The notes under the pieces were generated by a model. It was not told the DNA's origin. It did no database searches and saw nothing but the letters and a program-made list of their open reading frames with translations. The translations under genes and the position numbers were made by a program. From the NCBI GenBank assembly GCA_035571115.1, contig DATMKR010000057.1:4231-68230 (forward strand): a stretch of DNA of 64,000 bases. The letters run 5' to 3'. How positions within the stretch are numbered: the first letter of the stretch is position 1; every line of letters starts with the position of its first letter. The stretch is from Candidatus Acidiferrum sp. (GTDB taxonomy: Bacteria > Vulcanimicrobiota > Vulcanimicrobiia > Vulcanimicrobiales > Vulcanimicrobiaceae). Positions 9,282 through 61,367 of this stretch are shown here, in pieces.

Positions 9282-9290
9282 GAGGGTTCG

Positions 9291-10715: not shown

Positions 10716-11281
10716 CGAACGGTCAAAGGTATCGTGCGTTCGACCGCATCCCCGCGAGTGTTTTTTGCAATGACGCGCATCGTAAACGTTCCGCGAATGA
10801 ACCACGGCAGCGGCGCGACTTTGTACGTGAGCGCAAAGCGTCCCACGCCAGTTTTCGCGAGGGTCATTGCATAGCCCCCAATGCGAGCCTGCACGCTGGC
10901 GACGTTCGAGGTCGTAACGACCCTGCCGGAGACCGTGTCACCCGGTTGGACGGTCGTCTCGCTTACCGCGACCGCAAGAATCTGTGGTGCGGCGTCGGGG
11001 GGAAGGCGAGGAACTTTGACCGCAAGCCTGGGCGGCGTGGCGACGGGCGACGGTGGTGCCGTCGTCGTTCGCGAGGCCGATGACGGGCTGGGAAGCCCCG
11101 CAGCTGGGGCCGTGCTCCGGGCGGGGACGACTCCCGCTTTCCCGGCGGCGCTCCGCGAAACGGCCGCCGGCGGCCGGGTTCGCGACGTCGGCTGCCCCCC
11201 GCTTGGTGCGGCCGCATGGGCGCAGCCGGCAAGCCAGAGCGAAGCCGCGCCGATGGCCAGGGCCGAACGGGCGTTAGGCAT
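10712..11281 (-). CDS. Lipoprotein with a Pro/Ala/Ser-rich linker and conserved C-terminal domain; paralogue of 8829-9281
   Basis: Start at MPNARSALAIGAASLWLAGC (lipobox). The C-terminus is PPDAAPQILAVAV...TTSNVASVQARIGGYAMTLAKTGVGRF...IAKNTRGDAVERTIPLTVR. Its stop overlaps the phosphoesterase start. Confidence 0.65.
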   Translation of the reverse strand: MPNARSALAIGAASLWLAGCAHAAAPSGGQPTSRTRPPAAVSRSAAGKAGVVPARSTAPAAGLPSPSSASRTTTAPPSPVATPPRLAVKVPRLPPDAAPQILAVAVSETTVQPGDTVSGRVVTTSNVASVQARIGGYAMTLAKTGVGRFALTYKVAPLPWFIRGTFTMRVIAKNTRGDAVERTIPLTVR

Positions 11282-11357
11282 GCGCCCTAGTTCTTGGAGC
11301 CCGCGCACTTTCCGCTCGGGGTGACAACGGCGGTGAGGTGTTGAAAACTCCTGCGGC

Positions 11358-17800: not shown

Positions 17801-18212
17801 GATCGACGTGAAGATCGACGCGTTCATTCCCAACGACTACATTGGCCAGGTTTCGCAGAAGATCGCCATCTACCAGCAGCTGGCGAAGGCTCGTACGCAA
17901 GAGGAGGTCGAAGAGGTCGCGGCCGGCGTGCGGGACCGCTTCGGCGCCTTCCCGCTACCCCTCGCGAACCTGGTGGAGCTGACCAAACTGCGCGCGGTGG
18001 CACTGCGGAAGCGCGTCACCAGGGTCGTCGTGGACGAGCGCCGGCTCACTCTCGGCGTCGGGTCGGGTTTCGAGCTCGATCCCGCAGCCGTACCGAAGCT
18101 CCAGGCCCTTACCAAGAACCGCTTCCGCTTCACCGACGGCCGCATTCTCGTCGACCTGCCAGGCAACCATAACTGGATGCCGCTCCTCCGAAAACTGCTG
18201 GAAGCCCTATAG
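14820..18212 (+). CDS. mfd: Transcription-repair coupling factor
   Basis: 1130 aa with TPDQQKAFDATKSDMES..MDRLICGDVGYGKTEVAMRAAF, DEEQRFGV, and helicase motifs through QLRGRVGRS. ATGA overlap with the upstream gene. Confidence 0.95.
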   Translation: MTAHLTAASPVDSAGGDAAKDLLAKLTESNRAFASTLERLKSLRRIAGKKPGGYALHETIAAARPALLAALHAELGGCLLVVLPTPDAAERSFADLLYYLEDCSERIALVRSRDEALGAIETPSERSARMTLLADLADGAPRIVLAPIAAVRQRLMSRSRFDELRFTLRSGDEAGWERLQRRLFDLGYVRCDVVSAVGEYAVRGGIIDLFAATADSPARIEFLGDAIESLRTFSIESQRSTTSIDRLEITPWEDPATQNAQNFGSETIFDYLPSDATVVLEEPSTITAVANALDEERNRERHTLLADEDAGEALRAELSATPISLHDVGALVAAHATLVFPGTIETGEHGTDWAPPAVESFVFECRPVEHFNRQLGLFTEAMREWVANGEHVFIVSAAVSRTIDLLQAAQIDVGVRARGSVLVDHGSIESGYWMPSLRLRVLGDREIFGAPPKRVKMRAIKEGVPVTLADLRVGDYVVHAVHGIGQYLGLRAETILGAMQDYLDLRYAGSDRMLVPVTQMHQIAKYSAAEGQSPRLSKMGGADWARTKTRVSESLAKVADELVKLYAEREMSRGFAFSPDTTWQAEMEEAFPYEPTPDQQKAFDATKSDMESARPMDRLICGDVGYGKTEVAMRAAFKAIADKKQVAVLVPTTLLADQHFRTFSARFGAFPVRVEELSRFTSKPDQKRILQDLAQGKVDVVIGTHRLLQKDVAFADLGLIVIDEEQRFGVMHKERLKGYRASVDVLTLSATPIPRTLHMSLMGVRDLSLIQTAPKNRMSIKTLVVPASDAVVQRAIAAELDRGGQVYYLHNRVESIYAVRNALERLSPRARIGVGHGQMRESELEPVMQRFIDRDLDVLVATTIIENGIDIPNVNTMIVSDSDRFGLAQLYQLRGRVGRSNHQAYCYLLYQGHKALTEEAKARLEAIREFAHLGSGLQIAMRDLEIRGAGNLLGSAQSGFIASVGFDTYCELLAQAIAQRRGGPAALEERREAVIDVKIDAFIPNDYIGQVSQKIAIYQQLAKARTQEEVEEVAAGVRDRFGAFPLPLANLVELTKLRAVALRKRVTRVVVDERRLTLGVGSGFELDPAAVPKLQALTKNRFRFTDGRILVDLPGNHNWMPLLRKLLEAL

Positions 18213-18354
18213 CCCTCGTCGTTCTAAAGTGGGTCGAAGGCCCCCGAGGTTCCCCTTGAGCGAAGGAACGGGGGCACGGCGCGCGAACGAGCCCGCCGTG
18301 ATGCGGGGCTCCGAGCCTCGCGTACTACGCACTATTATCCAATCGGAGCAATGA

Positions 18355-19350
18355 ATGTCGAAAGTCCAACGCCTCACCGTAGGCCTGGCCGCCCTTCTCT
18401 TCGGCACGTCGCTAGCGGCGTGCGCGGGCGGCGGTACCGTCGCGACGGTGAACGGCCAACCGATCAGCGAGTCCGCATTTAACACAAAGCTGGAAGGGAC
18501 GCCGATGGCGCGCACGGTCTTGCAGCAAATGGTGCAAGACGCGTTGATCGAACAATACGCCAAGAACAATAACATCAACGTCACCGATGCCGAGATCAGC
18601 GCGCGCGAAGACCAGATCAAGCAGAACTTTCCAGCCGGCTCGTGGGACGAGATGCTGAAGTCGCGCGGCCTTTCCGAAGACGACGTTCACGCCGCGCTGC
18701 GCGAGCAGCTCATCCTCGACAAGGCGCTGGGTTCGCAAGTGAAGATCGCGCCGGCCCAGATCAAGGATTACTTCGACAAGAATCACGCCACGTTCGATAA
18801 GCCCGAGCAAGTAACGGCCCGTCACATCTTGGTGCCGAACTTGGCCGAAGCGCAGAAAGTCGAGCAGCTTCTCAAGTCCGGACAGAGCTTTGCCGACGTT
18901 GCCAAGCAATATTCGACCGATCCCGGCAGCAAGGACAAAGGCGGCGACCTAGGCACCTTCAAGAAAGGGCAGATGGTACCGGCATTCGATAAGGTAGCGT
19001 TCTCGGCGCCGATCAACGCAATTAGCGCGCCGGTGAAATCGCCATTCGGATATCACATCATTCAAGTCGAAGCGCGCATTCCGGGGCAGACGGCAACGCT
19101 GGCCAGCGCGACGCCGCAGATCACCGATACCTTGCGCCAGCAGCAAGAGGCGCCGCTGATTCAGCCGTTCCTCCAGGGCCTGCAGCAGAAAGCCGATATC
19201 AAGGTCAACAATCCGACCTTTGCCGGTCTCTTCGCGACGCCGATGCCTCCAGGAGGAATGGGCGCTGCGGCGGGTTCGGCTGCGCCGAGTGCAGCGGCTT
19301 CGCCCGCGGCTAGCGCCCCGGCCGCTTCGCCCGCGCCCTCTTCGACGTAA
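18355..19350 (+). CDS. PrsA/SurA-like parvulin peptidyl-prolyl isomerase lipoprotein
   Basis: Lipobox LFGTSLAAC. Parvulin domain: ARHILV...DKGGDLGTFKKGQMVPAFDKVAF...SPFGYHIIQVE. Ala/Ser/Pro-rich tail. Confidence 0.8.
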   Translation: MSKVQRLTVGLAALLFGTSLAACAGGGTVATVNGQPISESAFNTKLEGTPMARTVLQQMVQDALIEQYAKNNNINVTDAEISAREDQIKQNFPAGSWDEMLKSRGLSEDDVHAALREQLILDKALGSQVKIAPAQIKDYFDKNHATFDKPEQVTARHILVPNLAEAQKVEQLLKSGQSFADVAKQYSTDPGSKDKGGDLGTFKKGQMVPAFDKVAFSAPINAISAPVKSPFGYHIIQVEARIPGQTATLASATPQITDTLRQQQEAPLIQPFLQGLQQKADIKVNNPTFAGLFATPMPPGGMGAAAGSAAPSAAASPAASAPAASPAPSST

Positions 19351-34643: not shown

Positions 34644-35317
34644 CTGTACCTCCCATCTGTGCGCGGGCCAAAGAGCGCCTCTCCGATGCGCACCATCGTC
34701 GAGCCGGCTCGCAGCGCTTCGCGCCAATCTCCCGACATACCGATGGAAAGCGTACTTCCACCTATGCGTGCCAAGGTCTTGGCAGCGAGCTCGAATGCGC
34801 GCGATATTGCGTCGCTGTCGGCGCCCAGCGGTCCCATTGCCATCACGCCCTCGAGGCGCAAGCTCGCCTGGCCTCGGAGCGTTTCGGCGAGCCGGTCGGC
34901 TTCATCGGGACGACAGCCAAAGCGATCGGAGGGCGTGATGTTGAGTTGCAGTAGCACCGGCAGCGTCGCGCCTAGGTCTTGCGCCGCCCTTCCCAGCGCT
35001 ATGCCCGCTTCGGCCCGATCGACGCTCTGAACGACGTCGAACGTCGCTGCTATCGCTTTCGCCTTGTTACTCTGTATGTGGCCGACGAAATGCTTGCGAA
35101 CGGCAGGCAGCAGCGGAAACTTGCGGCGCGCCTCTTGGAGGTAGCTCTCGCCGAGATCGGTCAGGCCCGCCTCGATCGCCTGGGCAATTAATTCCGGGGG
35201 CTGGCGCTTGCCGACCCCGACCAGCGTGACGCCGCCTGGATCGCGCCCCTCCCTCCGCGCTTCTTCATCGATGGCGCTTCGCAGCGCCCGGTAACGTTCC
35301 CCGACCCCTTGCCTCAT
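34640..35317 (-). CDS. yggS: YggS-family pyridoxal-phosphate homeostasis protein
   Basis: Motifs: VTLVGVGKRQP, HFVGHIQSNKAK, LSIGMSGDW, GSTMVRIGEALFG. Confidence 0.85.
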   Translation of the reverse strand: MRQGVGERYRALRSAIDEEARREGRDPGGVTLVGVGKRQPPELIAQAIEAGLTDLGESYLQEARRKFPLLPAVRKHFVGHIQSNKAKAIAATFDVVQSVDRAEAGIALGRAAQDLGATLPVLLQLNITPSDRFGCRPDEADRLAETLRGQASLRLEGVMAMGPLGADSDAISRAFELAAKTLARIGGSTLSIGMSGDWREALRAGSTMVRIGEALFGPRTDGRYR

Positions 35318-36162
35318 CCACGCGCCGGGCGGACCGGTCTGGCGTCGGTGCGGGGGCCCGGCCGGGTCGCGCAGTAGGCGATTCCGATCACCCCCACGAC
35401 GATCATCGGTAGGGCGTAGAGCTGGCCGCCGGTGAGGCCCATCCAGCTAAAATCGGTCTGCCGCCACATCTCTGCGATCGTTCGCGTGATCCCGTAGCAC
35501 GTGAACCAGGTCCACGCGACGACGCCGTCTTTGGGTTTGAGCCGGTAGACGATCAAGAGGATCGGCAGCGTCAGGATGTCGAGAATCGCCTCGTAGATCT
35601 GCGAAGGATGACGATATGCCACTGCGCCCGGCGCGGAGGGAAAGACCATGCACCAGGGGCGGTCGGGACGGCAGACGTCCCCCCACAGCTCGTCGTTGAT
35701 GAAGTTCACGATTCGCACCAGAGTGATGCCGACCGGCAGCATCATCACGACTTCGTCGCCGACGACCACGTATTTCAGACCCGGATGCTGCCGAATGAAC
35801 AGCCAGATCGCCACCAGCACGCCGATCAATCCCCCGTGGAAGGCCATCCCGCCGTTCCAGACCGCGATGAAATTGACCGGGTTGGAAAAATAGAACGAGG
35901 CGTCGTGCTTGCTGATGATGTCGTTGATGACGAAGAAGGTTCGCCCGCCGACGAGTACGCCGATCAGCGCGTAGAAGAGAAAATCCTGAATCTGCTGCTT
36001 CGTGAGCCCCAGGCGGCGCAGCCCGGCCGGACGGCTCATCCACAGATAGACGCAGAGGAACGCCACCAAATAGGCGATGCCGTACCAATGGATGCCGAAA
36101 CGCGGACCGAGATGAATCGCGACCGGGTCGATGTTTGTCGGATAGGTGAACCAGTGCTGCAT
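35314..36162 (-). CDS. lgt: Prolipoprotein diacylglyceryl transferase
   Basis: Motifs: IHWYGIAYLVAF, GMAFHGGLIGV, HPSQIYEAI. Polytopic. Confidence 0.9.
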   Translation of the reverse strand: MQHWFTYPTNIDPVAIHLGPRFGIHWYGIAYLVAFLCVYLWMSRPAGLRRLGLTKQQIQDFLFYALIGVLVGGRTFFVINDIISKHDASFYFSNPVNFIAVWNGGMAFHGGLIGVLVAIWLFIRQHPGLKYVVVGDEVVMMLPVGITLVRIVNFINDELWGDVCRPDRPWCMVFPSAPGAVAYRHPSQIYEAILDILTLPILLIVYRLKPKDGVVAWTWFTCYGITRTIAEMWRQTDFSWMGLTGGQLYALPMIVVGVIGIAYCATRPGPRTDARPVRPARG

Positions 36163-43726: not shown

Positions 43727-45730
43727 TCAGGACAAACTCCGGCGGTAGAGGCTGCGTCGATAGATCCAGATCAGCGCCGCCCCGACGATCGCGCCCGCGA
43801 CGAGCCCATTGAGGATTCGCAAGACCGAAATCTCGAGCGGGGTGTGCAGGTGCGAAAACGTGTCGATAACGTCGCCAATCCCGACCCCGATGCAGAGCGC
43901 CAAGAGCCAGCCTACCGCGCGCCGGTGCGGCGGCAGCAAGGCCGGCAGTACCATCATGGCGGGAACGCCGATCAAGAACTCCTTGAAGCGAGGACGGACG
44001 CTCAGCGTGGCGGTCAGGAGATGGCGAAACGCGAGCTCGAAGGGCGAAGGCGAGACTTCGCTGTCGTTGCCGCTGCGCACGAGCATCAGCGCGCCGGCGG
44101 CAACGATCGCGATCCCCGCCAAGAGCTGATAGGTCAGGACCGGCGAGAGAAAGACGTCCCGCGGCCGCTCGACGCCCGAGCCGAAACGCCGGTCGAACAG
44201 GTAGAGCGCCAGCGCGATGAGCGGCGGCAGCGCCAGGACGAGCCGGACGCCTCGGAAGCGCTCGATCTCCTCCATTGCCAGCGGCGCGCTCATGACGCCG
44301 ACGACGACGAGCGCGCCGAGCAGCGCGACGCCCGTCGCCGCGAGGGTCCAACCAAGGCTGCGGACGAGCTGAGTGCCGGCGCCGCTCGCGGGCGTTTCAT
44401 TCCAGGCCGGGATCAAAATCAAGATTGCCGCGGTCGCGAAGAGCAGCGCGCCGGCGAGCGCGATGGCGGAGCGCGCGAATGCGTCGTGATGCGTCAGTAC
44501 TCCCGCGAGGTACAGCGCGATCGTCGCGCCGTAAGCGATGACGGCAATTCGACGCCCGTACAAGCCGAAGAATTCGAGCAGCAGCACGAAAATCGACGGG
44601 ACGGCTAGCGCCGCCAGCCCTACCAGAACCCGATTGTTGCCGCGATACGCAGGAATCGGCGTGGCCCGCCCCAGACGAAAACCGCCGGCGCGCAGCTGAT
44701 CCGCGATCTGCTTGACCATTTCGACATTGGTCGCCTCGACCGAAAGATCTCCATCTTGGTGCGCCCACGGACGCAAGTACGCGACTCGGACGTTGCGTTC
44801 GCGAACGCCCAAGACGTATCGCGCGACAACCTCGTCGAGCTTGAGCTTATCCAGTTCGGTTTTCGCGATAGCCTGAACGCGAACCGTCCGGCCGGGAATG
44901 AGCCGCGCAAGGGTGTCGTTGCCCTTCTGCACTTGACTGGGATCGTACGTCTCGATCGACCCGAAGTTGAAGAGGTGACGTTTGAAGGCTTCCGCCGTAT
45001 CCTCCAGATGATCGGGATAACCGGCAACCGCATTGCTCAACCCGGAGAAGATAACCGTCGAGACCTTCGGGTCGTAGGCAAGCACATCGTCGAAAAGCGC
45101 TTCGATCTGCGGCGCGCGAAAACGCTCGTCATTTTGAAAACGCGGAACAACCAGTAGCCCGAGCCGGTGTGCCAGCGCGATTTCGTCCGTTGGGATGCCT
45201 AAGCCGATCGCGTCGAAGTAGTCGATTTGCGTCCGGACCTCGATAAGCCAGGGGCGAGTCGCCCGCAAGACCCGCACGCTCTTGGGGCTAAAATGCAACG
45301 AAAGCTGGGCCAAATAACGTCGATACGTCGAGGAATCCGATACCAGGAGATAGATGGCCCCGGCGTCGACGCGCCGGCCGGCGACCAAGGAGGCCAGCAA
45401 GGGATCGCGGAGCGGGGAGAGTCGCGACTGATTGAGGAGCGCCGCCCCGGTCGTCGCATAAGACTTTCCGTTGTAGCCGACGTTCGCGCCGAGCTCTTCG
45501 GTGAGGGCCAGCGAGGTTAGGCCCGCACGCCGCAGCGCGATCAGGAATGCGGCGGGATTATAGTTGTACGAGCGCGCGAGAGCATCGAGATCGCTGAAAT
45601 CCATGGCGAGTTCGACGCGGTTTGCGTGCGATTCCGTGCGAAGGCGAAATCCCGCGACGGCCAGCGAGGCGATTAGTGCGACGAGCAAGACGACGGCCGC
45701 GTAGCGCGTCCTGGGAGTAAAAAGAGTCAC
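43727..45730 (-). CDS. Large membrane protein, DUF5693-like (csaB-associated)
   Basis: 667 aa with an N-terminal TM helix, a roughly 330-aa extracytoplasmic domain, then about 8 TM helices. The family assignment comes from memory of csaB neighbourhoods and is not verified. Confidence 0.6.
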   Translation of the reverse strand: MTLFTPRTRYAAVVLLVALIASLAVAGFRLRTESHANRVELAMDFSDLDALARSYNYNPAAFLIALRRAGLTSLALTEELGANVGYNGKSYATTGAALLNQSRLSPLRDPLLASLVAGRRVDAGAIYLLVSDSSTYRRYLAQLSLHFSPKSVRVLRATRPWLIEVRTQIDYFDAIGLGIPTDEIALAHRLGLLVVPRFQNDERFRAPQIEALFDDVLAYDPKVSTVIFSGLSNAVAGYPDHLEDTAEAFKRHLFNFGSIETYDPSQVQKGNDTLARLIPGRTVRVQAIAKTELDKLKLDEVVARYVLGVRERNVRVAYLRPWAHQDGDLSVEATNVEMVKQIADQLRAGGFRLGRATPIPAYRGNNRVLVGLAALAVPSIFVLLLEFFGLYGRRIAVIAYGATIALYLAGVLTHHDAFARSAIALAGALLFATAAILILIPAWNETPASGAGTQLVRSLGWTLAATGVALLGALVVVGVMSAPLAMEEIERFRGVRLVLALPPLIALALYLFDRRFGSGVERPRDVFLSPVLTYQLLAGIAIVAAGALMLVRSGNDSEVSPSPFELAFRHLLTATLSVRPRFKEFLIGVPAMMVLPALLPPHRRAVGWLLALCIGVGIGDVIDTFSHLHTPLEISVLRILNGLVAGAIVGAALIWIYRRSLYRRSLS

Positions 45731-47310: not shown

Positions 47311-47422
47311 CCCTTCGACAAGCTCAGGAGCCTTGCTCAGGATGACAATGGGCGATGACGGCCCTTCGACGCGGCCCCTTCGACAAGCTCAGGAGCCTTG
47401 CTCAGGATGACAATGGGCGATG
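47311..47422. repeat. Perfect 47-bp direct repeat (two copies, 65-bp period) of the repeat family, abutting tRNA-Val
   Basis: cccttcgacaagctcaggagccttgctcaggatgacaatgggcgatg occurs at 47311-47357 and 47376-47422. The last 9 nt of copy 2 are the 3' acceptor end of tRNA-Val. Confidence 0.85.
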
Positions 47423-47486
47423 CAGGACTTGAACCTGCGACATCCTCCTTGTAAGGGAGGCGCTCTCCCAGCTGAGCTAATCGCCC
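47414..47486 (-). tRNA. tRNA-Val (anticodon TAC)
   Basis: The reverse complement GGGCGATTAGCTCAGCTGGGAGAGCGCCTCCCTTACAAGGAGGATGTCGCAGGTTCAAGTCCTGCATCGCCCA folds as a canonical 73-nt cloverleaf: 7-bp acceptor stem, GCTC/GAGC D stem, CCTCC/GGAGG anticodon stem with loop CTTACAA, and GCAGG/CCTGC T stem. CCA is not encoded. Confidence 0.9.
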
Positions 47487-47565
47487 ACGCTTGCTAGCGC
47501 GTAACCCTTCGGCCGAACCGGTTTCTTTTACTTCACGGAGCGCCGGGTTGCTGTGGGAGGTTTAG

Positions 47566-50536: not shown

Positions 50537-51880
50537 ATGGGCGATCAAAATCGGATGGTGTGGTGCTGCCTTCTCAGCGCCATGCTGACGGCGTGCGGCG
50601 GCGGTTCCACTCCAGCAGGCGGAGGGCCATTCGAGCCTCCGCCCCCCGCCAAACAGGGTAACTACTTCAAGCATATCGTGATCTTGATTCAAGAAAATAG
50701 GACGTTCGACAATCTCTTCGCGACCTTTCCGGGCGCGGACGGCACCAGGTCCGGCAAGACACACAACGGCAAGATTCTACTGCGGGCCGGCGACCTCGAG
50801 AGCGAGGTCTCGCCCAACAACGGCTACAACTGCTGCTGGCAGCGCGATTGGAACCGCGGCAAGATGAACCACTTCGACCTCGTGCGTATCGGCAGAGTGC
50901 CGGGCACCTTCGTCTATCAATACGTCCATCCGGATCAGATCGCGCCGTACTGGGATTTGGCCAAGCAATACGTGCTTTCGGATCACATGTTCCAAACTCA
51001 AGGCAGCGGAAGTTTCACCGCGCACCAGGATCTGATTCGCGGCGATACCGCCATCAACGAGACGTCCAACCTGATCGATTTTCCAACCGGCGGCGCAGAC
51101 CAGCCGTGGGGCTGCGACGCGAACCCGGGCACGAGGACGTCGCTCATTACCGCGGACAATAAATACTCCGGCAACGTCGGACCGTTTCCGTGCCTAACGT
51201 ATGCTACGCTGCGCGATCTGCTCGACCCAAAGGATATCTCGTGGCGCTACTACGCGCCCGCGGTCGGAGGCAACTTCGGCGGTAATCTTTGGAATGCATT
51301 CGATGCCATCAAAGCGGTGCGGTACGGGCCGGAATGGACGACGAACGAGGCCAATCCGGAGACGAGAGTCTTCACCGACATTTCGCGCGATACGCTTCCG
51401 TCGGTTGCGTGGGTGATTCCCGACTATCAGAACTCCGATCATCCCGGAGACAACTCCGACACCGGTCCCTCGTGGGTCGCACAAGTCGTCAACGCGATCG
51501 GCCAAAGCCCGGCCTGGAAGACGACGGCCATCGTGATCGTGTGGGACGACTGGGGCGGATGGTACGATCACGTCCCGCCGCCGGGTCCGCATCGCTACGG
51601 CGGCCTCGGCTTCCGCGTGCCGGCCATCGTCGTTTCGCCGTATTCGAGACCCGGCTACGTCTCTCACAATATTTACCAGTTTGGAAGCATCATAAAGTTC
51701 GTCGAGGAAAACTGGCAACTCCCGAGCCTCGGAACGACGGATAAGACCTCCGCGAGCTTCATTAAAGATTTCTTTGACTTCACGCAGCACCCGCGCAAGT
51801 TCGTTCCAATCGGCTCGAAGTATTCCAGGTCATTTTTCTTGCATCAACTACCGTCGAACCAACCGGTCGACTCCGAGTAA
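50537..51880 (+). CDS. PLC/AcpA-family phosphoesterase lipoprotein (paralogue B)
   Basis: Lipobox LSAMLTAC. Motifs: [74 protein letters not shown]. Confidence 0.85.
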
Positions 51881-51898
51881 AGATAACTGGGATTACCC

Positions 51899-53242
51899 AT
51901 GTCGCACGAATCGAAGCGTCACGCGCGCTCCACACAATGGAAGAATAGCGCCGGTAGCGAAGGTCAGTCTTGGCTTTATATGCGTACGATCGAAAGCGTC
52001 TCCGATCCCCAAGCCTCGGCCGCCGCCGGCGCCGCACCCGATATGCGCCTGCGCGCGGTACCGGTGGTCTTGTCGGATTTCCAAACCGTCCAAATGACGC
52101 CACCGCGCGAACAGGACGAACTCAAAAGGATTCAGGCCCATTTCATGACGCTCGCGCAATGCGCGCAAAAGGGCCTGACCTCGCCCGAAGATCGGCAGCG
52201 TTTGGCGCGCACGATCGAAGAGCGCATGGCGCGCTACGGCGCTTCGAGCGAGCACATCGCGCGCCGCCAAGTCAGCGTTCTCACCTCGCGCTTCGTCGTG
52301 CCTCGGCCGGACAGCCCAACCGAGAACGTCGCGCGCTACGGCGATTTACGGGCTTCGACGGGCGAAGCCCTCGACGAACGCATGACCCTCTTCGAAGAGG
52401 TCGCGTGTGACGTTTTCGAACGCGTCTACCCCGATGCAACGGCACAAGCGCCCGACGACATCGTCCACGTGAGCTGCTCGGGTTACATTTCCCCCAGCCC
52501 GGTGCAAACTTTTCTTTCGCGCCGGAAATGGCTGCGCACCGGTGTCACGCACTCGTACCACATGGGATGCTACGGCGCCTTTCCGGCGATTCGCACCGCC
52601 GTCGGGCTCGTCGGCTCGTCTTACGATTCGCTGCCGAAGCCAAAACGCCGCGTGGATCTCGTGCACACGGAGTTTCTTTCGCTGCATTTCGATTTGCTTG
52701 GCGAAGAAGCAGACAACTTCGTTACGTCGACGCTCTTCGCCGACGGCTTCATTAAGTATTCGGCCTATCCGGAGTTTGCCCGCGGCGGACGAAGCGGCTT
52801 GAAAATCCTGGCCATCGAAGAATACATACTGCCGGACTCGTTACCGGAGATGACCTTGCGGCCGGGACCGCTGCAGTTCGACATGTCGTTATCAAAAAAG
52901 GTGCCGTTCATGATTCGCGACTCGATCGGCGACTTCATCGCGTCGATCTGCGGTCAGGTCGGCCTCGATTTCGAGCGTGAAAAGGCAACGATGGCATTTG
53001 CAATCCATCCGGGTGGCCCGGCAATCCTCAATCAAATTCGCAGCAAGCTGGGCATCGAAGAGTCGCAGATCGCCCTGAGCAGAAAAGTGCTTAACGAGCA
53101 CGGCAACATGGCCTCGGCGACGGCGCCGCACATTTGGCAGGCGATCGTAGAATCGCCGGAGATTCCCGTGGGCTCGAAGGTGTTGAGTATGGCGTTTGGG
53201 CCAGGCTTGACGGTCATCGGGGCCCTTTTCGAGAAAGTCTAG
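51899..53242 (+). CDS. Type III polyketide synthase (chalcone/stilbene synthase superfamily)
   Basis: The catalytic triad context is present: Cys in SYHMGCYGAF, His in AIHPGGPAIL, Asn in EHGNMASAT, plus the MAFGPGLT loop. The start is uncertain: Met 51899, 51980 or 52043. The longest choice gives an unusually long N-terminus. Confidence 0.8.
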   Translation: MSHESKRHARSTQWKNSAGSEGQSWLYMRTIESVSDPQASAAAGAAPDMRLRAVPVVLSDFQTVQMTPPREQDELKRIQAHFMTLAQCAQKGLTSPEDRQRLARTIEERMARYGASSEHIARRQVSVLTSRFVVPRPDSPTENVARYGDLRASTGEALDERMTLFEEVACDVFERVYPDATAQAPDDIVHVSCSGYISPSPVQTFLSRRKWLRTGVTHSYHMGCYGAFPAIRTAVGLVGSSYDSLPKPKRRVDLVHTEFLSLHFDLLGEEADNFVTSTLFADGFIKYSAYPEFARGGRSGLKILAIEEYILPDSLPEMTLRPGPLQFDMSLSKKVPFMIRDSIGDFIASICGQVGLDFEREKATMAFAIHPGGPAILNQIRSKLGIEESQIALSRKVLNEHGNMASATAPHIWQAIVESPEIPVGSKVLSMAFGPGLTVIGALFEKV

Positions 53243-53250
53243 GCCCCACA

Positions 53251-54414
53251 ATGGCAACAACACAAACGGCAAAGCCCCAGAAGTTTTCGGTGCCGGCCCC
53301 TTTCTATTGGGGAGTGAAAGGCGTCCATGCAGCCGCGCCGCTCTTCGTTGCGCTGGGAAATCTCGAGACGAAGATGTTACAACGCCGGCTCGCCGGGCGA
53401 TCCGTTGACCGACCCGTGTATATTTGCGGGCTTCCACGAGCGGGGACGACGATCACGCTGCAGATGCTCAGCGAGCATCCCGACGTCGTCACCCACAAGT
53501 ACGCCGATTTCTTGATGCCGTACATGCCGTACGTCTGGAACCAGGTCTTTCCACGCATTCCCGTCGACGCTATGCGCAAACCCGTGCCCCGCATTCATCG
53601 CGACCGCATCGAAGTGACGCGCGACAGCGCCGAAATGGGCGAGGAGATCCTGTGGGAGCACTTCTTTCCGCACATTCACGATGAGTCGAACTACAGCGTG
53701 CTCGACGGCACGACGTCGAATCCGGCCTTCGAAAGCTTCTACGTCGATCATCTCAAGAAGCTGGCACTGGTACGCGGACGGAACCGCTACATCAGCAAGG
53801 CGATTATGTGCGTCGTTCGCATGCAATACCTGCGCCGAATCTTTCCCGACGCGCGCTTCCTCCTCTACGTGCGCAATCCAATCGATCACATCGCGTCGAT
53901 GATCAAGCAAGACCGCATCTGGGCGGAGATCGAGAAGAGCGACCCCCGCCAAATCGAGATCATCGAGCTGACCGGGCACCACGAGTTCGGGCCGCATCAA
54001 GTGATGGCCAACGTCGGCAACCCCGACGAGCTGCGTGAGATCCGCCGGCTCTTCGACGCCGGCCAGTGGGGGCTGTCGCGCGCCCGCTATTGGGCCTACG
54101 TTTATGGTTTCGTCGCCAGCCAGCTGCAGGCGGACCCGGAGCTGGCGCGGCGCGTCTGCATCGTGCGCTACGAGGATCTCTGCTCGGATTCGCTCCCGAC
54201 GATCGACCGCATTCTCGAACACGCCGGCCTAGCCGCCGAGCCGTTCGCGCAAACGCGCGAAGCCTACGGTAAGAAACTCTCATTCCCCGACTACTATAAG
54301 CCCGTCTTTAGTGCGCAAGAGCTTGCGGAGATCACGAGCGTAACCGGCGGTGTCGCCGAGTATTTCGGCTACGACGTCGGGACGATCGCACGGCGAGTCG
54401 AGGCGCTTACGTAG
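53251..54414 (+). CDS. Sulfotransferase family protein
   Basis: Start at MATTQTAKPQ. The PAPS 5'-phosphosulfate-binding loop is YICGLPRAGTTITLQML and the 3'-phosphate motif is LLYVRNPIDHIASMI. The track start at 53134 lies inside the PKS gene and is rejected. Confidence 0.7.
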   Translation: MATTQTAKPQKFSVPAPFYWGVKGVHAAAPLFVALGNLETKMLQRRLAGRSVDRPVYICGLPRAGTTITLQMLSEHPDVVTHKYADFLMPYMPYVWNQVFPRIPVDAMRKPVPRIHRDRIEVTRDSAEMGEEILWEHFFPHIHDESNYSVLDGTTSNPAFESFYVDHLKKLALVRGRNRYISKAIMCVVRMQYLRRIFPDARFLLYVRNPIDHIASMIKQDRIWAEIEKSDPRQIEIIELTGHHEFGPHQVMANVGNPDELREIRRLFDAGQWGLSRARYWAYVYGFVASQLQADPELARRVCIVRYEDLCSDSLPTIDRILEHAGLAAEPFAQTREAYGKKLSFPDYYKPVFSAQELAEITSVTGGVAEYFGYDVGTIARRVEALT

Positions 54415-55934
54415 TGCGGCTCGCGCCGATCGGCGTGGCCGTGCTCGCGAGCGTCGCGCTGTCCGCCTGCGGCGGCGCGAGCATTCCCGGCACGGCGGCG
54501 CTGCCGGCGGTCCATCACCGCACTTCGAGCAGCTCGCCGATCCAGCACGTCATCATCGTGATTCAAGAGAATCGCAGCTTCGACGACCTATTCGCCACGT
54601 TTCCAAACGCCGACGGAACGACCACCGGCACGGGCGAGCCGATGCCAAAAGCGGAAGCATCGACTTGCGCGAAAGACAACCAGCAGGTGGTCACGCAGTC
54701 GAAGCCGGCCGTTTCGCTGACGAAGGTCTCGCTCATCGGCGTGGGATTCCCGAAATTCAAAAACGGCGGCGGCAAGCTCGTGTCGTTTGGCGAGGGCACC
54801 GATCTTCCGCACGTGTACGGATGGTACGCCATAACGCCGTTTTTGGATGAATACGACAACGGCAAGATGGACGGCTTCGACCGGGAAGGTTCGGGAGCGA
54901 ACGGCAACGGCTCGACGCTTTGCACCTACCCGTACCAGTACGTGAATCCCGGCGCGATTAAGGAGTACTGGGATCTAGCGCAGCAATACGTGCTCGCGGA
55001 CAAGACGTTCCAGACACAAGGCAGCGGATCGTTCACCGCACATCAGGATCTGATCGCGGGCGGCACCGTCGTCAACTATACCTACGGCGGCTACACCGAC
55101 GACAGCGTGATCGATAATCCTTCGTTCTGGCCGTGGGGATGCGACGCACCGCACGGGGTGGTGACGTCGTTGATCACGACGAACCTGCAATACCTGCAGT
55201 TCAAAGGGCCCTTTCCGTGTTTGGGCTACGAAACGATGCGCGATCTCCTCGACGCGAAGTCGGTCTCCTGGAAATACTATGCAGAGCAGGTGAAGGGCGG
55301 GAACGCCGGCCTTTGGAGCGCCTTCGACGCGATCAAAGCCGTCCGCGATAGTAAGGAATGGACGACCAACGTCACCACGAGCCCGAACGTGATCTTTCAA
55401 GATATTAAGGCCGGCAGTCTCCCTGCCGTCTCCTGGGTCACGCCCATTGGAGAGAACTCCGACCATCCCGATGAGAAGGGAGCGGGGGGCAAATACGTCG
55501 ACAACGGCCCGTCGTGGGTCGCCAACGTCGTCAATCAGATCGGCGAGAGTCAGTACTGGAACTCGAGCGCGATCGTGGTTCTCTGGGACGACTGGGGCGG
55601 CTTCTACGATCACGTTCCTCCCCCGTGCCTGTACAAGTCGCAATGCCGCGACAACCAAGGCGGCTTGGGATTCCGCGTTCCGATGATCATCGTGTCGCCT
55701 TACGTGAAGGCGCACGTCGAGCACACGCAGTACGAGTTCGGCAGCATTCTGAAGTACATTGAAGACAACTGGGACCTGGGGTCGCTCGGCACGACCGACC
55801 AGCGCGCGACGAGCATCGGAAACGTCTTCAACTATAGTCAGAAGCCGCGCAAGTTCAAAGTGATCCCGGCAGCCCTTCCGTTATCGTTCTTCTTACATCA
55901 GAAGCCGTCGGGCGCACCACCCGATACCGAATAG
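54414..55934 (+). CDS. PLC/AcpA-family phosphoesterase lipoprotein (paralogue C)
   Basis: GTG start shares 1 nt with the sulfotransferase stop. Lipobox VALSAC. Motifs: [59 protein letters not shown]. Confidence 0.85.
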   Translation: MRLAPIGVAVLASVALSACGGASIPGTAALPAVHHRTSSSSPIQHVIIVIQENRSFDDLFATFPNADGTTTGTGEPMPKAEASTCAKDNQQVVTQSKPAVSLTKVSLIGVGFPKFKNGGGKLVSFGEGTDLPHVYGWYAITPFLDEYDNGKMDGFDREGSGANGNGSTLCTYPYQYVNPGAIKEYWDLAQQYVLADKTFQTQGSGSFTAHQDLIAGGTVVNYTYGGYTDDSVIDNPSFWPWGCDAPHGVVTSLITTNLQYLQFKGPFPCLGYETMRDLLDAKSVSWKYYAEQVKGGNAGLWSAFDAIKAVRDSKEWTTNVTTSPNVIFQDIKAGSLPAVSWVTPIGENSDHPDEKGAGGKYVDNGPSWVANVVNQIGESQYWNSSAIVVLWDDWGGFYDHVPPPCLYKSQCRDNQGGLGFRVPMIIVSPYVKAHVEHTQYEFGSILKYIEDNWDLGSLGTTDQRATSIGNVFNYSQKPRKFKVIPAALPLSFFLHQKPSGAPPDTE

Positions 55935-55937
55935 CTC

Positions 55938-57296
55938 GTGAAGCCGCTGGCCTTTGCCGCCGCTGCTTTCATCCTCGGTGCGTGCAATGCCGGAACATCG
56001 CAGGGCGTGCCGAGTGTGCTTGCGGTCCGGCCGATATCGAGATCGCACAGCTCGCCGATCTCGCACATCGTCCTCATCGTTCAGGAGAACCGGACGTTTA
56101 ACAATCTTTTCGCCACGTTCCCCGGAACCGTCGGTACGACGACCGGCAAAGAGCTCGTCGGCGGTAAGGTCAAGTCAATAAATCTCACCGAAGTACCTCT
56201 CGAATCCCCGAAGACGCTTCGCCACACGTACACCGGCTATAGGATCGGCTATAACGGCGGGCAGATGGACGGCTTCAATCTGATCCGCTTTCTAACCAGC
56301 GGAAAGTATGAAGGCGCTCTTCCTTATGAGTACGTCGACCCTGCGGACGTCGCGCCCTATTGGGCTATCGCAACCGATTACGCGATTGCGGACCATATGT
56401 TCACGACCCAAGGCAGCTCCAGCTTTCCAGCCCACCAGGATCTGATCCGCGGCGGTACGGCCATCGATCCGACGGAGAGTCTCATCGACGACCCCGACAA
56501 GACGCCGTGGGGCTGCCCCGCGCCGCCCGGCACGACGACCGAGCTCATCACGACCACGCTGAAATACGAAAGACACGGCCCGCCTCCGTGCACGTCGGAT
56601 TTTCCCTCGTCAGGAAACTACGATACGCTGCAAGAGTTGCTGGATGCGAAACACGTATCGTGGAAATACTATACGCCCGCATATGAGGGCAATACCGGCG
56701 CGATGTGGAACGCCTTCACGGTCATCGCTTCAGTCTTCGACAATAAGACGGAGTGGAACGCCCACATCTCGCAGCCCGAAACGAATATCTTTACCGATAT
56801 CTCCAACGGCGCGCTGCCGTCGATGTCGTGGGTGATCCCGGACGCCTTCAACTCCGATCATTCCGGCTATAAATCCGACACCGGGCCGTCCTGGGTGGCA
56901 AGCGTCGTGAACGCGATCGGTCAGAGCTCGTACTGGAACTCCACCGCAATCGTGATCGTATGGGACGACTGGGGCGGTTTCTACGACGAAGTCGAGCCGC
57001 CGAAACCCGACAATCAGGGCGGTCCGGGCCTCCGCGTGCCGATGCTGATCGTCTCGCCCTATGTCGGGCAAAACGAAATATCGCACAAAACGTTCGAGTT
57101 CGGAAGCATCGTCCGATTCATCGAAGATACATGGAACCTGGGACGCCTCGGAACCACCGACGAGACGACGAAAAGCATCGCCTCGATGTTCGATTTCAAC
57201 CAGTCCCCGCGGTCCTTTATCACGATTCCGTCGAAACACTCGAAGGCGTTCTTCCTTCACCAAAAGCCGTCCGGCTTGCCCGTCGACGACGAATAG
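55938..57296 (+). CDS. PLC/AcpA-family phosphoesterase lipoprotein (paralogue D)
   Basis: GTG start 3 nt after the upstream stop. Lipobox FILGAC. Motifs: [59 protein letters not shown]. Confidence 0.85.
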   Translation: MKPLAFAAAAFILGACNAGTSQGVPSVLAVRPISRSHSSPISHIVLIVQENRTFNNLFATFPGTVGTTTGKELVGGKVKSINLTEVPLESPKTLRHTYTGYRIGYNGGQMDGFNLIRFLTSGKYEGALPYEYVDPADVAPYWAIATDYAIADHMFTTQGSSSFPAHQDLIRGGTAIDPTESLIDDPDKTPWGCPAPPGTTTELITTTLKYERHGPPPCTSDFPSSGNYDTLQELLDAKHVSWKYYTPAYEGNTGAMWNAFTVIASVFDNKTEWNAHISQPETNIFTDISNGALPSMSWVIPDAFNSDHSGYKSDTGPSWVASVVNAIGQSSYWNSTAIVIVWDDWGGFYDEVEPPKPDNQGGPGLRVPMLIVSPYVGQNEISHKTFEFGSIVRFIEDTWNLGRLGTTDETTKSIASMFDFNQSPRSFITIPSKHSKAFFLHQKPSGLPVDDE

Positions 57297-58637
57297 TCAT
57301 TGCTCGTCGGGGATTTGACCGTCGTTGGCTTGGCGCAGGAAGAAATCCGGCCCCTTCGGCGCTTTGATCGGAACGAACGTGCGCGGCTTCTGCGAGAAAT
57401 CGAAACAATCGGCCGCCGGAGAGGTCGCGCGGGTGTCGGCCCGGGTCAGCTGAGCTAGGCCGAACAAGTCTTCAGCAAAGCGTAAAACGCTCGCCGTCTC
57501 GTAAGGCACGTGCGAGACGTAGTTCTGCTTCGCATACGCAGAGATCACGATGAGCGGAACGCGGAAACCCAGACTGTCGTAATCCTTAAACGGCGGCGGC
57601 ACGGGGTCGTAGGTGCCGCCCCAATCGTCCCACTGAACGAAGACCGCGGTCGAATCCCAGAACTTGCTCTCGCCCACTGCGTTCACCAATGAAGTCACCC
57701 ACGACGGCCCGAGGCCGCCGCCGCAGGCCAGATGGTCGGAGTCTGGGCAGAGTGGCGTGATCCACGTGAAGCTCGCGAGTTTTCCCGCTTTGATGTCGCG
57801 CAAGAAGCGCTTCTGCGGTATGACGATGTCTTTCTTCCAGTCGGGTCCGTTGAAGATGTGCTTGACGGCCTGATATCCCGACCAAAAGCCGCCCAAGGGC
57901 CGCTTGTAACTGCTCGTGTAGAAGCGCCACGGGAGACCGGCGCCGTCCAGTTCGTCGCCCAGTGTCTGATAACGGAAACACGGGACTTGACCGGGGCCGT
58001 AGGCGCGCTTGTGCGTGAGCGTCTGGACCATGTCGTTGGAGCCGCCTTCGCAGCCCCACGGGCCGTCGGGCACGTCGACGCTGGAGTCCGCCTGCGCGGC
58101 AATGATATACTGATGCGCCACAAAACTCTCGTCGAGCTGCGACGCGTGCATGTGATCGGCCAAGACAAACTCGCGCGCCATATCCCAATACGGTTTGGTT
58201 TCGCTTCGCGGAACGTAAACGTACTGGCCGTTCTTGGGCCCCTCGTACACTTGTTCTAAATTGAAGCCGTCCATTCGGCAATGGGTTCCGGGCAGTTTGC
58301 CCGTTCCATGGCATGCAGAGAACATTGCGTGCGCCGAGTGATCGATCTCGTACCTCGTGCTCAGGCTAACTGGTTGAAGCGCGATCGTTTTTCCCAAAGA
58401 GTTCTTGCCGCTCGTGACCGTCGTGGCGCCCGGATACCCCATAAAAAGATCGTTGAAGCTGCGGTTTTCCTGTACGATGTAAACGACGTGTTGAATTTTT
58501 CCCGTGCCGGTGAAGCCGAGCGTCTGCGTCAGATCGCCGCCGGCAGGTGCCGGCAGCGCGGCGTGTGACTGGAAAGCGCAGGCCGAGAGTGCCGCGCAGG
58601 CCGTCGCCCAAAGCGCAGCCCAATAAAGCTTCCGCAT
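57297..58637 (-). CDS. PLC/AcpA-family phosphoesterase lipoprotein (paralogue E, same subfamily as A)
   Basis: Start at MRKLYWAALWATACAALSAC (lipobox). Motifs: HVVYIVQENRSFNDLFMGYPG, GTHCRMDGFN (compare GTKCRMNGFD in A), GFRVPLIVISAYAKQN. The stop codon abuts the stop of paralogue D with no intergenic nucleotide. Confidence 0.85.
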   Translation of the reverse strand: MRKLYWAALWATACAALSACAFQSHAALPAPAGGDLTQTLGFTGTGKIQHVVYIVQENRSFNDLFMGYPGATTVTSGKNSLGKTIALQPVSLSTRYEIDHSAHAMFSACHGTGKLPGTHCRMDGFNLEQVYEGPKNGQYVYVPRSETKPYWDMAREFVLADHMHASQLDESFVAHQYIIAAQADSSVDVPDGPWGCEGGSNDMVQTLTHKRAYGPGQVPCFRYQTLGDELDGAGLPWRFYTSSYKRPLGGFWSGYQAVKHIFNGPDWKKDIVIPQKRFLRDIKAGKLASFTWITPLCPDSDHLACGGGLGPSWVTSLVNAVGESKFWDSTAVFVQWDDWGGTYDPVPPPFKDYDSLGFRVPLIVISAYAKQNYVSHVPYETASVLRFAEDLFGLAQLTRADTRATSPAADCFDFSQKPRTFVPIKAPKGPDFFLRQANDGQIPDEQ

Positions 58638-58893: not shown

Positions 58894-59997
58894 TTATAGG
58901 TTCTTGTTCGTGGGCGAGAAGCCGGCAGCTTCGGTGTAGCCCGTACCTTCGAGGCCGTTATTGAAACTATAGAGATACTTGATACCCGTGGGCGCATACT
59001 TGTAGACATCGACGTCGCTGTTGGTGACGTCACCGATGGCGACCTCATTGCCCTTCGCGTTGAGGTTGCCAAAAATTGAGGCACCCTCGAGGGTCGAGGA
59101 GCTGACGACCTTGCACTTCGGGTTGCAGCCACTGTATACGTACAGCGCGCCCGTCACATCGATCGAGACCAAGTTGCCCTTCGCGTCGAAGAAAAGACCG
59201 CCAAAACCCGCGTTCTTCGTGCCGGTTGCAACCGCGCCGCTACCCTTGCAGCCCTTCCAATAGACCAAGACAAAACCAGTCGTCGTCGAGGTGGCTCCCG
59301 ACATCCAACAGTCGCCTTTGGCGTCCGCGGCGATGCCTCCGCCATATCCCGTAATGGCCGAGTTCGTCACCGGTGCGCCGCAGCTGCTCGTCTTGAGCGA
59401 GCAAATCAGGACATCACCAGTTTGGGAGTCGGTGGCTAAGATTTCTCCGACGTAGATCGAGTCTTTCGTGGCGTCGAAGCTCTTGGCGTCGGACGCTTGA
59501 CCGTTTGTGTCGTCGATTGATCCGAGAAGCTTTCCGCATAGCTTGGGACCTCCGTAAACATTGATTGACGGTTCCGAGCTTGCGTTGCTTGCCGACGGAA
59601 GGATCAGGTTCTGCTTGAGATCGACGCCCCAACCATTTATTGCATAACCATCGATCGTACAGGTCGGCGCACTGTTCTTGCTGTCCGGATTAGGATAAGC
59701 GTTGATGAGGCCTTCCGCGTCCGAGGTAGGGCTGCTGTAGAATTCGCTACCATAAAGGCCGCCCGCCGACTTCTTCTTTTTATCCGGGAACGCCGTTCCA
59801 AGATGCAAGCGCTGTATGCCGGTAGGGCGCATCCATGCCGCTACCAAGCTGATCGGCACACGGTTGTTGGCTTGCGCAACGCGTGATGGCGAAGTAAGGC
59901 TCGGAACTGAACCGCTCTGCCCGGACAGATTGCCGGCGCAAGCGGCGAGAAGCCCAACACCGACCGCTGTACAGAGCGCCGAAGTAAAGTAACGCAT
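58894..59997 (-). CDS. Lipoprotein with a beta-propeller-like repeat architecture, unknown function
   Basis: Start at MRYFTSALCTAVGVGLLAAC (lipobox). Blade-like segments recur (FFDAKGNLVSIDVTGALYVYSG, AKGNEVAIGDVTNSDVDVYKY). It is Ser/Thr/Gly/Asn-rich and has visibly lower GC than its surroundings. Confidence 0.6.
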   Translation of the reverse strand: MRYFTSALCTAVGVGLLAACAGNLSGQSGSVPSLTSPSRVAQANNRVPISLVAAWMRPTGIQRLHLGTAFPDKKKKSAGGLYGSEFYSSPTSDAEGLINAYPNPDSKNSAPTCTIDGYAINGWGVDLKQNLILPSASNASSEPSINVYGGPKLCGKLLGSIDDTNGQASDAKSFDATKDSIYVGEILATDSQTGDVLICSLKTSSCGAPVTNSAITGYGGGIAADAKGDCWMSGATSTTTGFVLVYWKGCKGSGAVATGTKNAGFGGLFFDAKGNLVSIDVTGALYVYSGCNPKCKVVSSSTLEGASIFGNLNAKGNEVAIGDVTNSDVDVYKYAPTGIKYLYSFNNGLEGTGYTEAAGFSPTNKNL

Positions 59998-60261
59998 CAG
60001 GGAGTCTCCTTGGACGTGACGAGAAGTGTGGCTGCTAGAACCCCGACGGAACGACGCTGCCGCTCGAACGAGATCCGAGGTGAGGCGTTCGGAGGGTACC
60101 GGTGCCACCGTTTGACTGCTCGATGAGGCCCAGAACATCCTGCACAAGTGTCACCTGCGCCAGACGAGGTACGTGCTTACTTAGGTTGCTAGACTCAAGA
60201 GCACTGCTCGGCGTGATCGCTTCGCCGTTGCTGCGATGCCCGGGCGCCTTTTCTGAAAATA

Positions 60262-60293
60262 AAAAACGAGCCCGCCGTAGCGGGCTCGTTTTG
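60262..60293 (-). terminator. Rho-independent terminator (structurally bidirectional)
   Basis: aaaACGAGCCCGC-cgta-GCGGGCTCGTttt. The minus strand reads the hairpin followed by TTTTTTATTTTC, 30 nt after the stop of the 60324-61367 gene. Confidence 0.75.
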
Positions 60294-60323: not shown

Positions 60324-61367
60324 TTACTTGTCGACCGAGACGCCAATCGGCTCGGAGAGACCGCTGGCTGTGCTGACGGGAGAACCGCCGGCAGGGTACG
60401 CGAAGGAGGTAGCATCTGCGTCACCGGCGTTTGCGGTGAGAACGAACTTCCCGTCTTGCCAGTCTTGGACTGGATCCGAGACGTCGCTAAGAGCAATCGT
60501 ACCGACTTCGGTGCCGGTCGATCCGCTGACGGTGTACTGATCGATGGAGTCCGTGTCCTGGTCGAGGATGTCGATATCCTTACCAGCGATCGTCACGCCG
60601 CCCGGGAACTCCGGAAGGACGTTCAACGAGATGGCGGTGCCAGTCGTGGCGCCTGGGGCAATTTCGCAGAGTCCAATGCCGCTATCGGAGAGCGTCGCGA
60701 AGCCGTCGACCCAGATGTTGCCCTTCTTGTCGTAGGCGATGAAGTAGTACTTAGCCAGGTTGGGGCAGGTCGCCACGGTCGGCGTGCCTTTTCCGCCCTT
60801 GAAGATTTCGACGTTGCCGTTGCCATCGCTGGTCGAGATGATGTCGGAAACGGCGACGTCGCCCTTCTTGTCGACCGAGCAGCCTACCGGATATTCGCCT
60901 GAGATGGTCAGGCTGTTCGAAGATGTGGCAGAGCCGTTCGCGAATTCGAGGACGTTGGATTCGCCAGTGTTGGTGACCCAAGCGTCTTTCTTGTGCGCGC
61001 AAGCACCCTGCGGTTCAGAAGTGCCGGAGGTGTCGGTGCCAACTAGGCTGCCGAACATGCCTTTGCTGAAATCGTAGACATAGATCGTGTTGTCACCAGA
61101 GTCGGCGATGTAGGCAAATCCGCCCTTGGCTTTCCGATCGGGCGAAACTCTGGAGGGTCCGTGGATGGCGTGCAGGATACCGTTGTGGGCGACGCTGGTC
61201 GCCGACAAGCCGTGACCCGCTGCCGGGGTGACGCCCGATGCGCCCATGCCGCCGGTTTGGCCGCCGTTGCTGCATCCGGCAAGAATGCCGGCCGCTGCGA
61301 TCGCGCCCAAGGCGTACTTGGACAGACTCGAGATGTTCATTATAGAAATTTGCTCCATTTCTTTCAT
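60324..61367 (-). CDS. Lipoprotein with a beta-propeller-like repeat architecture, unknown function
   Basis: Lipobox AAGILAGC. Repeats resemble NHL/YncE-type blades: FAYIADSGDNTIYVYDF, DKKGDVAVSDII, YDKKGNIWVDGF. The start is Met 61367 or Met 61340. Confidence 0.6.
   Translation of the reverse strand: MKEMEQISIMNISSLSKYALGAIAAAGILAGCSNGGQTGGMGASGVTPAAGHGLSATSVAHNGILHAIHGPSRVSPDRKAKGGFAYIADSGDNTIYVYDFSKGMFGSLVGTDTSGTSEPQGACAHKKDAWVTNTGESNVLEFANGSATSSNSLTISGEYPVGCSVDKKGDVAVSDIISTSDGNGNVEIFKGGKGTPTVATCPNLAKYYFIAYDKKGNIWVDGFATLSDSGIGLCEIAPGATTGTAISLNVLPEFPGGVTIAGKDIDILDQDTDSIDQYTVSGSTGTEVGTIALSDVSDPVQDWQDGKFVLTANAGDADATSFAYPAGGSPVSTASGLSEPIGVSVDK

Follow-up and report, generated by a model that had tools for sequence, protein, structure and literature searches.

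Units that pair a type III polyketide synthase (PKS) with a sulfotransferase (ST) have so far come from a small number of clusters in actinomycetes and from mycobacteria, characterized examples including the adp, cpz and tot clusters (PMC12135136). In the five-gene adp operon of Streptomyces davaonensis, which also holds genes for the synthesis of 3'-phosphoadenosine 5'-phosphosulfate (PAPS), the PAPS-dependent sulfotransferase AdpST comes directly after a type III PKS of the alkylresorcinol kind, and the product of this adipostatin cassette is proven to be a sulfated alkylresorcinol (PMC12135136). In caprazamycin biosynthesis, Cpz6, Cpz8 and Cpz4 accomplish a "two-step sulfation" in which Cpz6 pyrones shuttle sulfate, according to the accounts of Tang et al. 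2013 given in PMC5916927 and PMC12135136. In Mycobacterium tuberculosis, the co-transcribed genes rv1371-rv1372(pks18)-rv1373 place a sulfotransferase 5 nt after a long-chain pyrone type III PKS. Here we describe a PKS-ST cassette in a 64,000-nt stretch of contig DATMKR010000057.1 (the window, to which all coordinates refer unless a locus is named), where it is embedded in an array of genes for PF04185 phosphoesterase lipoproteins, and show that such a cassette is conserved in the chromosomes of Eremiobacterota, bacteria that are abundant in peat and permafrost soils and almost wholly uncultured. The PF04185 setting is new, as is a chromosomal version of the cassette with an aryl-sulfate sulfotransferase (ASST) and an exporter in a sister lineage; a literature search found no relevant paper linking Eremiobacterota with these genes.

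We propose, with a probability of about 0.55, that the PKS-ST cassette is the functional core of the locus and is conserved as such in Eremiobacterota, and that the phosphoesterases are lineage-specific, co-expressed neighbors that are not required for its function. In the proposed pathway, the PKS would condense malonyl-CoA on a fatty-acyl starter to give an alkylpyrone or alkylresorcinol, the adjacent PAPS-dependent ST would O-sulfate this product in the cytoplasm, and the resulting anionic, phosphorus-free polyketide would serve outside the cytoplasm, either as an envelope or secreted amphiphile or as an aryl-sulfate donor of sulfuryl groups. We consider this end product, a sulfated alkylpyrone or alkylresorcinol with a role outside the cytoplasm, the most likely one. 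In loci of the Cybelea-like clade, which includes the window, the cassette sits within two tandem arrays of lipoproteins of the AcpA/phospholipase C (PLC) superfamily, one co-directional (B/C/D-type) and one convergent (E-type).

The evidence that carries this proposal comes from a neighborhood survey in which the window proteins were mapped onto 80 loci from genomes and 80 from metagenomes, grouped by the identity of their PKS to that of the window into the Cybelea-like clade (at least 65%), a sister lineage (48-53%) and distant ArsB/C-like loci (<48%). The ST gene lies directly downstream of the PKS gene in 112/112 clade loci and 6/6 sister-lineage loci, and thus in all 118 informative Eremiobacterota loci, and in 0/22 distant loci. 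The two genes remain adjacent in six sister-lineage metagenome loci in which the PKS is 49-52% and the ST 56-60% identical to the window proteins, and in those six loci no phosphoesterase gene was found within 10 kb of the pair. Phosphoesterases flank the pair in ~90% of the clade loci: directly upstream of the PKS, one is present and co-directional in 104 of 111 loci, divergent in one (L080, where it is the only one) and missing in six, and directly after the ST one is present in 90 of 99. The corresponding counts are 0/4 at either position in the sister lineage and 0/18 upstream of the PKS in the distant loci, which have no ST. Tumulicola-like and related loci (L076-L079) likewise keep PKS and ST without phosphoesterases, with STAND/cyclase-type regulators downstream. 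Because the PKS-ST adjacency is kept in both the clade and the sister lineage while the phosphoesterases drop out, we regard the pair as the functional core; because L076-L079 and most sister-lineage loci have none near the cassette, we do not regard phosphoesterases as obligatory.

Within the clade, loci longer than 20 kb carry one to eight phosphoesterase copies (median four), and the arrays are consistently arranged, with B/C/D-type genes on the strand of the cassette and E-type genes converging on them. Throughout the clade, PE_B recurs as the stable orthologue upstream of the PKS, PE_C differs between loci in presence and copy number, and PE_E is the first gene of a minus-strand array that has one to four copies in relatives. 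The genes further upstream, for an S41 protease, Sua5/TsaC, an enoyl-CoA hydratase and a DUF5693 protein, are as syntenic in the clade as the phosphoesterases, and because such unrelated housekeeping neighbors are equally syntenic, conserved adjacency at this depth says little on its own. These results bear on the original prediction, made from the window alone, in several ways. Its proposal of a dedicated PKS-ST unit with a sulfated alkylresorcinol- or alkylpyrone-type product gains support from the 118/118 adjacency and from the adp, cpz, tot and Rv1372/Rv1373 precedents, and remains a prediction as to chemistry. The neighborhood that it described recurs in relatives as far as PKS and ST are concerned, and the phosphoesterase link is common in the Cybelea-like clade alone. 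Its suggestion that the phosphoesterases are coupled to the pair is unproven, given that their adjacency is lost in the Tumulicola-like and almost all sister-lineage loci and that housekeeping genes are equally syntenic.

Assigned by sequence, the PKS (51899-53242, + strand) is an ArsB/ArsC-like alkylresorcinol/alkylpyrone synthase. It matches Chal_sti_synt_C (1.3e-18) and ACP_syn_III_C in Pfam; the N-terminal chalcone synthase domain PF00195 is undetected at E≤0.01, yet the full length still aligns with ArsC, and ArsB and ArsC of Azotobacter vinelandii have the same Pfam signature, in which the C-terminal chalcone-synthase domain alone is detected. The closest relative in the PDB is 3vs8/3vs9 (E 4e-92, 41.8% identity; next best E 2e-17). 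The 3VS8 structure is that of Azotobacter ArsC, which synthesizes alkylpyrones and has a long tunnel for the acyl chain, and ArsB and ArsC turn long-chain acyl starters into alkylresorcinols or alkylpyrones (PMC6274091). The residues C193, H370 and N403 align with the Cys-His-Asn triad of ArsC and are invariant in 16 orthologues, and ArsC Met293 corresponds to M329. Cyclization toward resorcinol or pyrone is set by Trp281 in ArsB versus Gly284 in ArsC (PMC6274091), a position taken here by L320, which is invariant in the 16-sequence orthologue alignment; both PKSs examined from the sister lineage have Leu there as well. The window holds a single PKS instead of the tandem pair of the ars operon, which to our knowledge is without a sulfotransferase, unlike the cassette described here. 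Among the distant ArsB/C-like PKSs (40-49% identity), those at L150 (10001-12420) and L157 (1-2006) form tandem pairs like Azotobacter arsB-arsC, without a sulfotransferase. The PKS has no signal peptide. A likely alternative start is M28 (51980), the equivalent of which is the first residue of many orthologues and which would widen the gap to PE_B to 99 nt; in the preceding 27-codon extension (51899-51979), an R-S-x-(E/Q)-W-K motif is conserved in part among distant orthologues.

The ST (53251-54414, + strand) is a PAPS-type sulfotransferase of the Sulfotransfer_3 family (Pfam E 1.9e-23) with an additional match to Sulfotransfer_1. It harbors the PAPS-binding motifs GLPRAGTT (residues 60-67; 5'-phosphosulfate-binding loop, 5'-PSB) and RNPIDHIAS (residues 208-216; 3'-phosphate-binding, 3'-PB), and none of G60, R63, G65, T67, R208, P210 and S216 varies among 32 distant relatives (~40% identity). 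A sequence search against the PDB returned only weak, motif-level matches to TPST, so that the fold assignment needed structure prediction: the AlphaFold2 model (pLDDT 90.3) has a confident sulfotransferase fold, and Foldseek retrieved with it the mycobacterial Stf1 and Stf9, TPST/TPST2 and 3-OST (E down to 1.8e-7, TM-score ~0.5), Stf1 and Stf9 being the nearest solved folds. The mycobacterial parallel is less close for the rest of the operon, as PKS18 is distant from the window PKS (E ~2e-11) and the rv1371 partner is desaturase-like, not a phosphoesterase. The ST has no signal peptide, and its predicted acceptor is the product of the adjacent PKS, as the adjacency in 118/118 loci suggests. 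The ST belongs to a large family, with 237 representatives at E≤1e-30, and some members are fused to a membrane domain; in a search for Rosetta-stone fusions, the extra part of its long members was either a methyltransferase or a membrane domain at the N terminus, and never a PKS or a phosphoesterase. Distant family members adjoin ASST genes in the proteobacteria Alloalcanivorax and Dongia and in one Thorarchaeote (L085). In Alloalcanivorax and Dongia deserti (L082, 3603-7149; L083, 3668-7146) these genes form a four-gene operon of ASST, a ~100-aa membrane protein, a ~240-aa membrane protein and ST, and the ~240-aa protein is similar to the domain that many ST-family members of 570-720 aa carry fused at the N terminus (P0133, P0143, P0152).

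Around this pair lie four phosphoesterase genes, PE_B (50537-51880, +), PE_C (54414-55934, +), PE_D (55938-57296, +) and PE_E (57297-58637, -), all of which match PF04185 (E 1e-44 to 6e-58; 6.5e-58, 1.9e-52, 5.7e-53 and 1.3e-44, respectively) and encode a lipobox (LTAC, LSAC, LGAC and LSAC). A fifth paralogue outside the cluster, PE_A (9291-10805, -; lipobox LGGC), was recovered by tblastn and Pfam (E 2.3e-48). The paralogues fall into a B/C/D clade with 44-53% mutual identity (PE_C 45-47% and PE_D 50-53% to PE_B) and an A/E clade (51%), with 33-38% between the clades (PE_E 35-37% to PE_B/C/D). When aligned with AcpA, all five share the catalytic residues E53, N54, S159, D301/H302 and D337/D338, S159 corresponding to the Ser of the AcpA GPSTPG motif, and the sulfatase formylglycine motif C/S-x-P-x-R is lacking. 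The PF04185 domain, the metal ligands and the position of the Ser nucleophile are shared with Francisella AcpA and with the PC-PLC enzymes (PlcH/PlcN and PlcA-D of M. tuberculosis). Unlike these, the window proteins are lipoproteins encoded in large tandem paralogue arrays, have ~450 residues and no Pfam match beyond PF04185 (solved PLC chains have 666-744), and score below both subfamily cut-offs of NCBIfam, with 121-150 bits for the AcpA model TIGR03397 (cut-off 363) and 88-131 bits for the PC-PLC model TIGR03396 (cut-off 580). They are best regarded as an uncharacterized PF04185 subfamily, probably of active hydrolases, and the lipoboxes and retained catalytic residues suggest that they are most likely extracytoplasmic, phosphate-releasing enzymes of an expanding tandem family. 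Several related loci have additional PF04185 copies near their ends, which indicates that the family is expanded genome-wide; PE_A itself, 40 kb from the cluster, adjoins a DUF2079 membrane protein and GT2 glycosyltransferases.

The gene junctions were read directly from the sequence. PE_B and PKS are separated by 18 nt, PKS and ST by 8 nt and PE_C and PE_D by 3 nt, the ST stop and PE_C start share one nucleotide (TAGTG), and the stop codons of PE_D and PE_E abut with 0 nt between them; third-position GC is high in all six genes (0.73-0.80). The gene set, these spacings and the abutting PE_D/PE_E ends agree with the original prediction, as do its family calls (four PF04185 proteins, a type III PKS as well as a PAPS-type sulfotransferase by Pfam), its topology of four lipobox-bearing phosphoesterases around a PKS and an ST without signal peptides, and its finding of intact PKS Cys/His/Asn residues and PAPS motifs, which aligned as conserved. 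Its label of PLC/AcpA-family enzymes stands for the PF04185 domain and the AcpA catalytic residues and does not extend to the two NCBIfam subfamilies. A scan for promoters and terminators inside the cluster gave counts at or below the shuffled expectation and was uninformative. Arrays and cassette are probably co-transcribed, because of the stop/start overlap within tightly packed genes and because no internal terminator signal was found in the cluster, and with probable co-transcription they may also share a trigger, e.g. phosphate limitation.

The strongest lead to function is the sulfate-relay context, a reading absent from the original prediction. In the sister lineage, a lipoprotein ASST (PF05935, E 1e-36) is encoded divergently upstream of the PKS-ST pair at L134, L136/137, L167, L168, L170, L171 and L172, loci whose outer flanks differ, and most of these loci also have, next to the ST, an ABC-2 exporter made up of two permeases and two ATPases, usually convergent. 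At L136/L137 the module comprises ASST (7746-9374, -), PKS (9926-11194, +), ST (11241-12407, +) and ABC-2 genes (15154-19326, -). A neighboring protein at L136 has an identical counterpart in a Ca. Eremiobacteraceae metagenome-assembled genome, and L167 is from Ca. Aquilonibacter; L167 is also the only sister-lineage locus with a PF04185 gene, located after the ASST and sharing 35-38% identity with the window phosphoesterases. By analogy, this module is a chromosomal counterpart of the Cpz4/Cpz6/Cpz8 sulfate relay: the Cpz system shares the type III PKS and PAPS-dependent ST with the window, and the sister lineage adds the ASST that completes the triad. The likeness is one of gene logic, not of compared sequences, and the window differs from the Cpz system in lying outside any antibiotic cluster, in a conserved chromosomal region, and in having PF04185 lipoproteins around the cassette, with no ASST found near it. 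The pairing with a lipoprotein ASST and an ABC-2 exporter suggests that the PKS-ST product most likely acts outside the cytoplasm. The physiological substrates of ASSTs have been described as unknown (PMC13426309), and the sister-lineage module points to a candidate natural, self-made aryl-sulfate donor for extracytoplasmic ASSTs.

Three other readings of the clade arrangement have to be weighed. The locus may be a phosphorus-sparing island for membrane remodeling, in which phosphate limitation induces a single transcript, the lipoproteins strip phosphate head groups from phospholipids or organophosphates outside the cytoplasmic membrane and the sulfated phenolic lipid replaces phospholipid in the envelope. 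This would fit the co-directional, tightly packed or overlapping genes and the phosphoesterases placed upstream of the PKS (104/111) and directly after the ST (90/99) in clade loci, and likewise the phosphoesterase that still stands beside the cassette in the rearranged loci L080, L089, L102 and L167. The structural relatives of the phosphoesterases include the plant PF04185 protein NPC4, and NPC4/5 act in phosphate-starvation lipid remodeling. The known bacterial remodeling PLCs (PlcP), however, work at the cytoplasmic face, whereas the window phosphoesterases lie outside the membrane. In the island's favor, the membrane phospholipids of Azotobacter cysts are replaced by alkylresorcinols (PMC4824345). 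We nevertheless consider the island unlikely in view of the cassettes without phosphoesterases in Tumulicola-like and nearly all sister-lineage loci, the equally syntenic housekeeping neighbors, and the multiple PF04185 copies in these genomes, which make chance adjacency a non-negligible explanation. If the phosphoesterase link of the Cybelea clade did reflect phosphate limitation, it would represent a lipid strategy not seen before, free of phosphorus and suited to acidic soils poor in that element, and such an island would add a new class of substitute lipids without phosphorus, made by a soil phylum that is widespread and uncultured.

A Cpz-like relay in the window genome, with the sulfated polyketide as an exported aryl-sulfate donor for an unlinked ASST elsewhere in the genome and the phosphoesterases as unrelated neighbors, draws on the ASST-PKS-ST triad kept at seven sister-lineage loci with differing flanks, on the distant ST-family members beside ASST in Alloalcanivorax, Dongia and the Thorarchaeote, and on the sulfate shuttling by Cpz6 pyrones as recounted in the sources above. 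It is rendered doubtful by a tblastn search that found no ASST, ABC-2 exporter, ST-associated small membrane protein or ~240-aa membrane protein in the window or within ±10 kb in ~130 clade loci. The phosphoesterases could also take the place of the ASST and, outside the cytoplasm, remove the sulfuryl group from the polyketide sulfate by hydrolysis or transfer, as PF04185 belongs to the alkaline-phosphatase superfamily with its phosphate/sulfate promiscuity and the lipoprotein beside the PKS is a phosphoesterase here and an ASST in the sister lineage, a positional analogy only. This we hold to be highly improbable: the AcpA Ser nucleophile and metal ligands are kept, no formylglycine sulfatase motif is present, L167 has an ASST and a phosphoesterase together and thus no replacement, and we know of no PF04185 enzyme that is a sulfatase.

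The reading of PKS-ST as a core with dispensable phosphoesterases is in turn weakened by several observations. Some genomes behind the surveyed loci are redundant, so that the counts do not represent independent events. At L080 (divergent) and at L167 (following the ASST) a phosphoesterase is again found beside the cassette in a rearranged form, which hints that the association possibly goes beyond inherited synteny. The ring type of the product, pyrone or resorcinol, cannot be predicted from sequence because the deciding residue is Leu320, neither Trp nor Gly. Finally, a Pfam scan of the ~50 largest open reading frames (ORFs) of the window revealed neither PAPS-synthesis genes (APS kinase, sulfate adenylyltransferase), such as accompany the adp cassette, which as described has no phosphoesterase, nor fatty-acid synthase genes of the ArsA/ArsD type found in the ars operon, and no ABC-2 exporter was found by that scan or by tblastn of the whole 64-kb window.

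The window is from the genome of an uncultured Eremiobacterota member of peat soil, near Ca. Cybelea, and represents a core chromosomal region. The Eremiobacterota chromosomes OY970207.1, OY969421.1 and OY970335.1 also carry the cassette. All PKS relatives are labeled Eremiobacterota/Vulcanimicrobiota, most being Ca. Cybelea or Baltobacteraceae of peat, palsa and forest soils, and the rest of the window encodes IleRS, TGT, an RluD-like protein, Mfd, a SurA-like protein, PGK, iPGM, WhiA, MurJ, flagellar rod proteins and Lgt (35314-36162). A horizontally acquired biosynthetic island was ruled out by the uniform GC content and the housekeeping flanks with conserved synteny. The DUF5693 protein (43727-45730, -; 667 aa, E 4e-132) is conserved across the clade in sequence (75-97%) and position, and a tRNA-Val gene (anticodon TAC; 47413-47487, -) was the sole RNA gene detected in the 64 kb by Rfam and tRNA scans. 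Beyond PE_E lie two further lipoprotein genes, g417 (58894-60147, -; lipobox LLAAC) and g347 (60324-61367, -; lipobox ILAGC), which were considered as hidden ASST-like propellers and left outside the system after Pfam and NCBIfam returned nothing beyond a marginal NHL repeat. Their paralogues (25-60% identity) recur past the PE_E arrays in many related loci, and a strong terminator-like hairpin follows g347 at 60263-60292.

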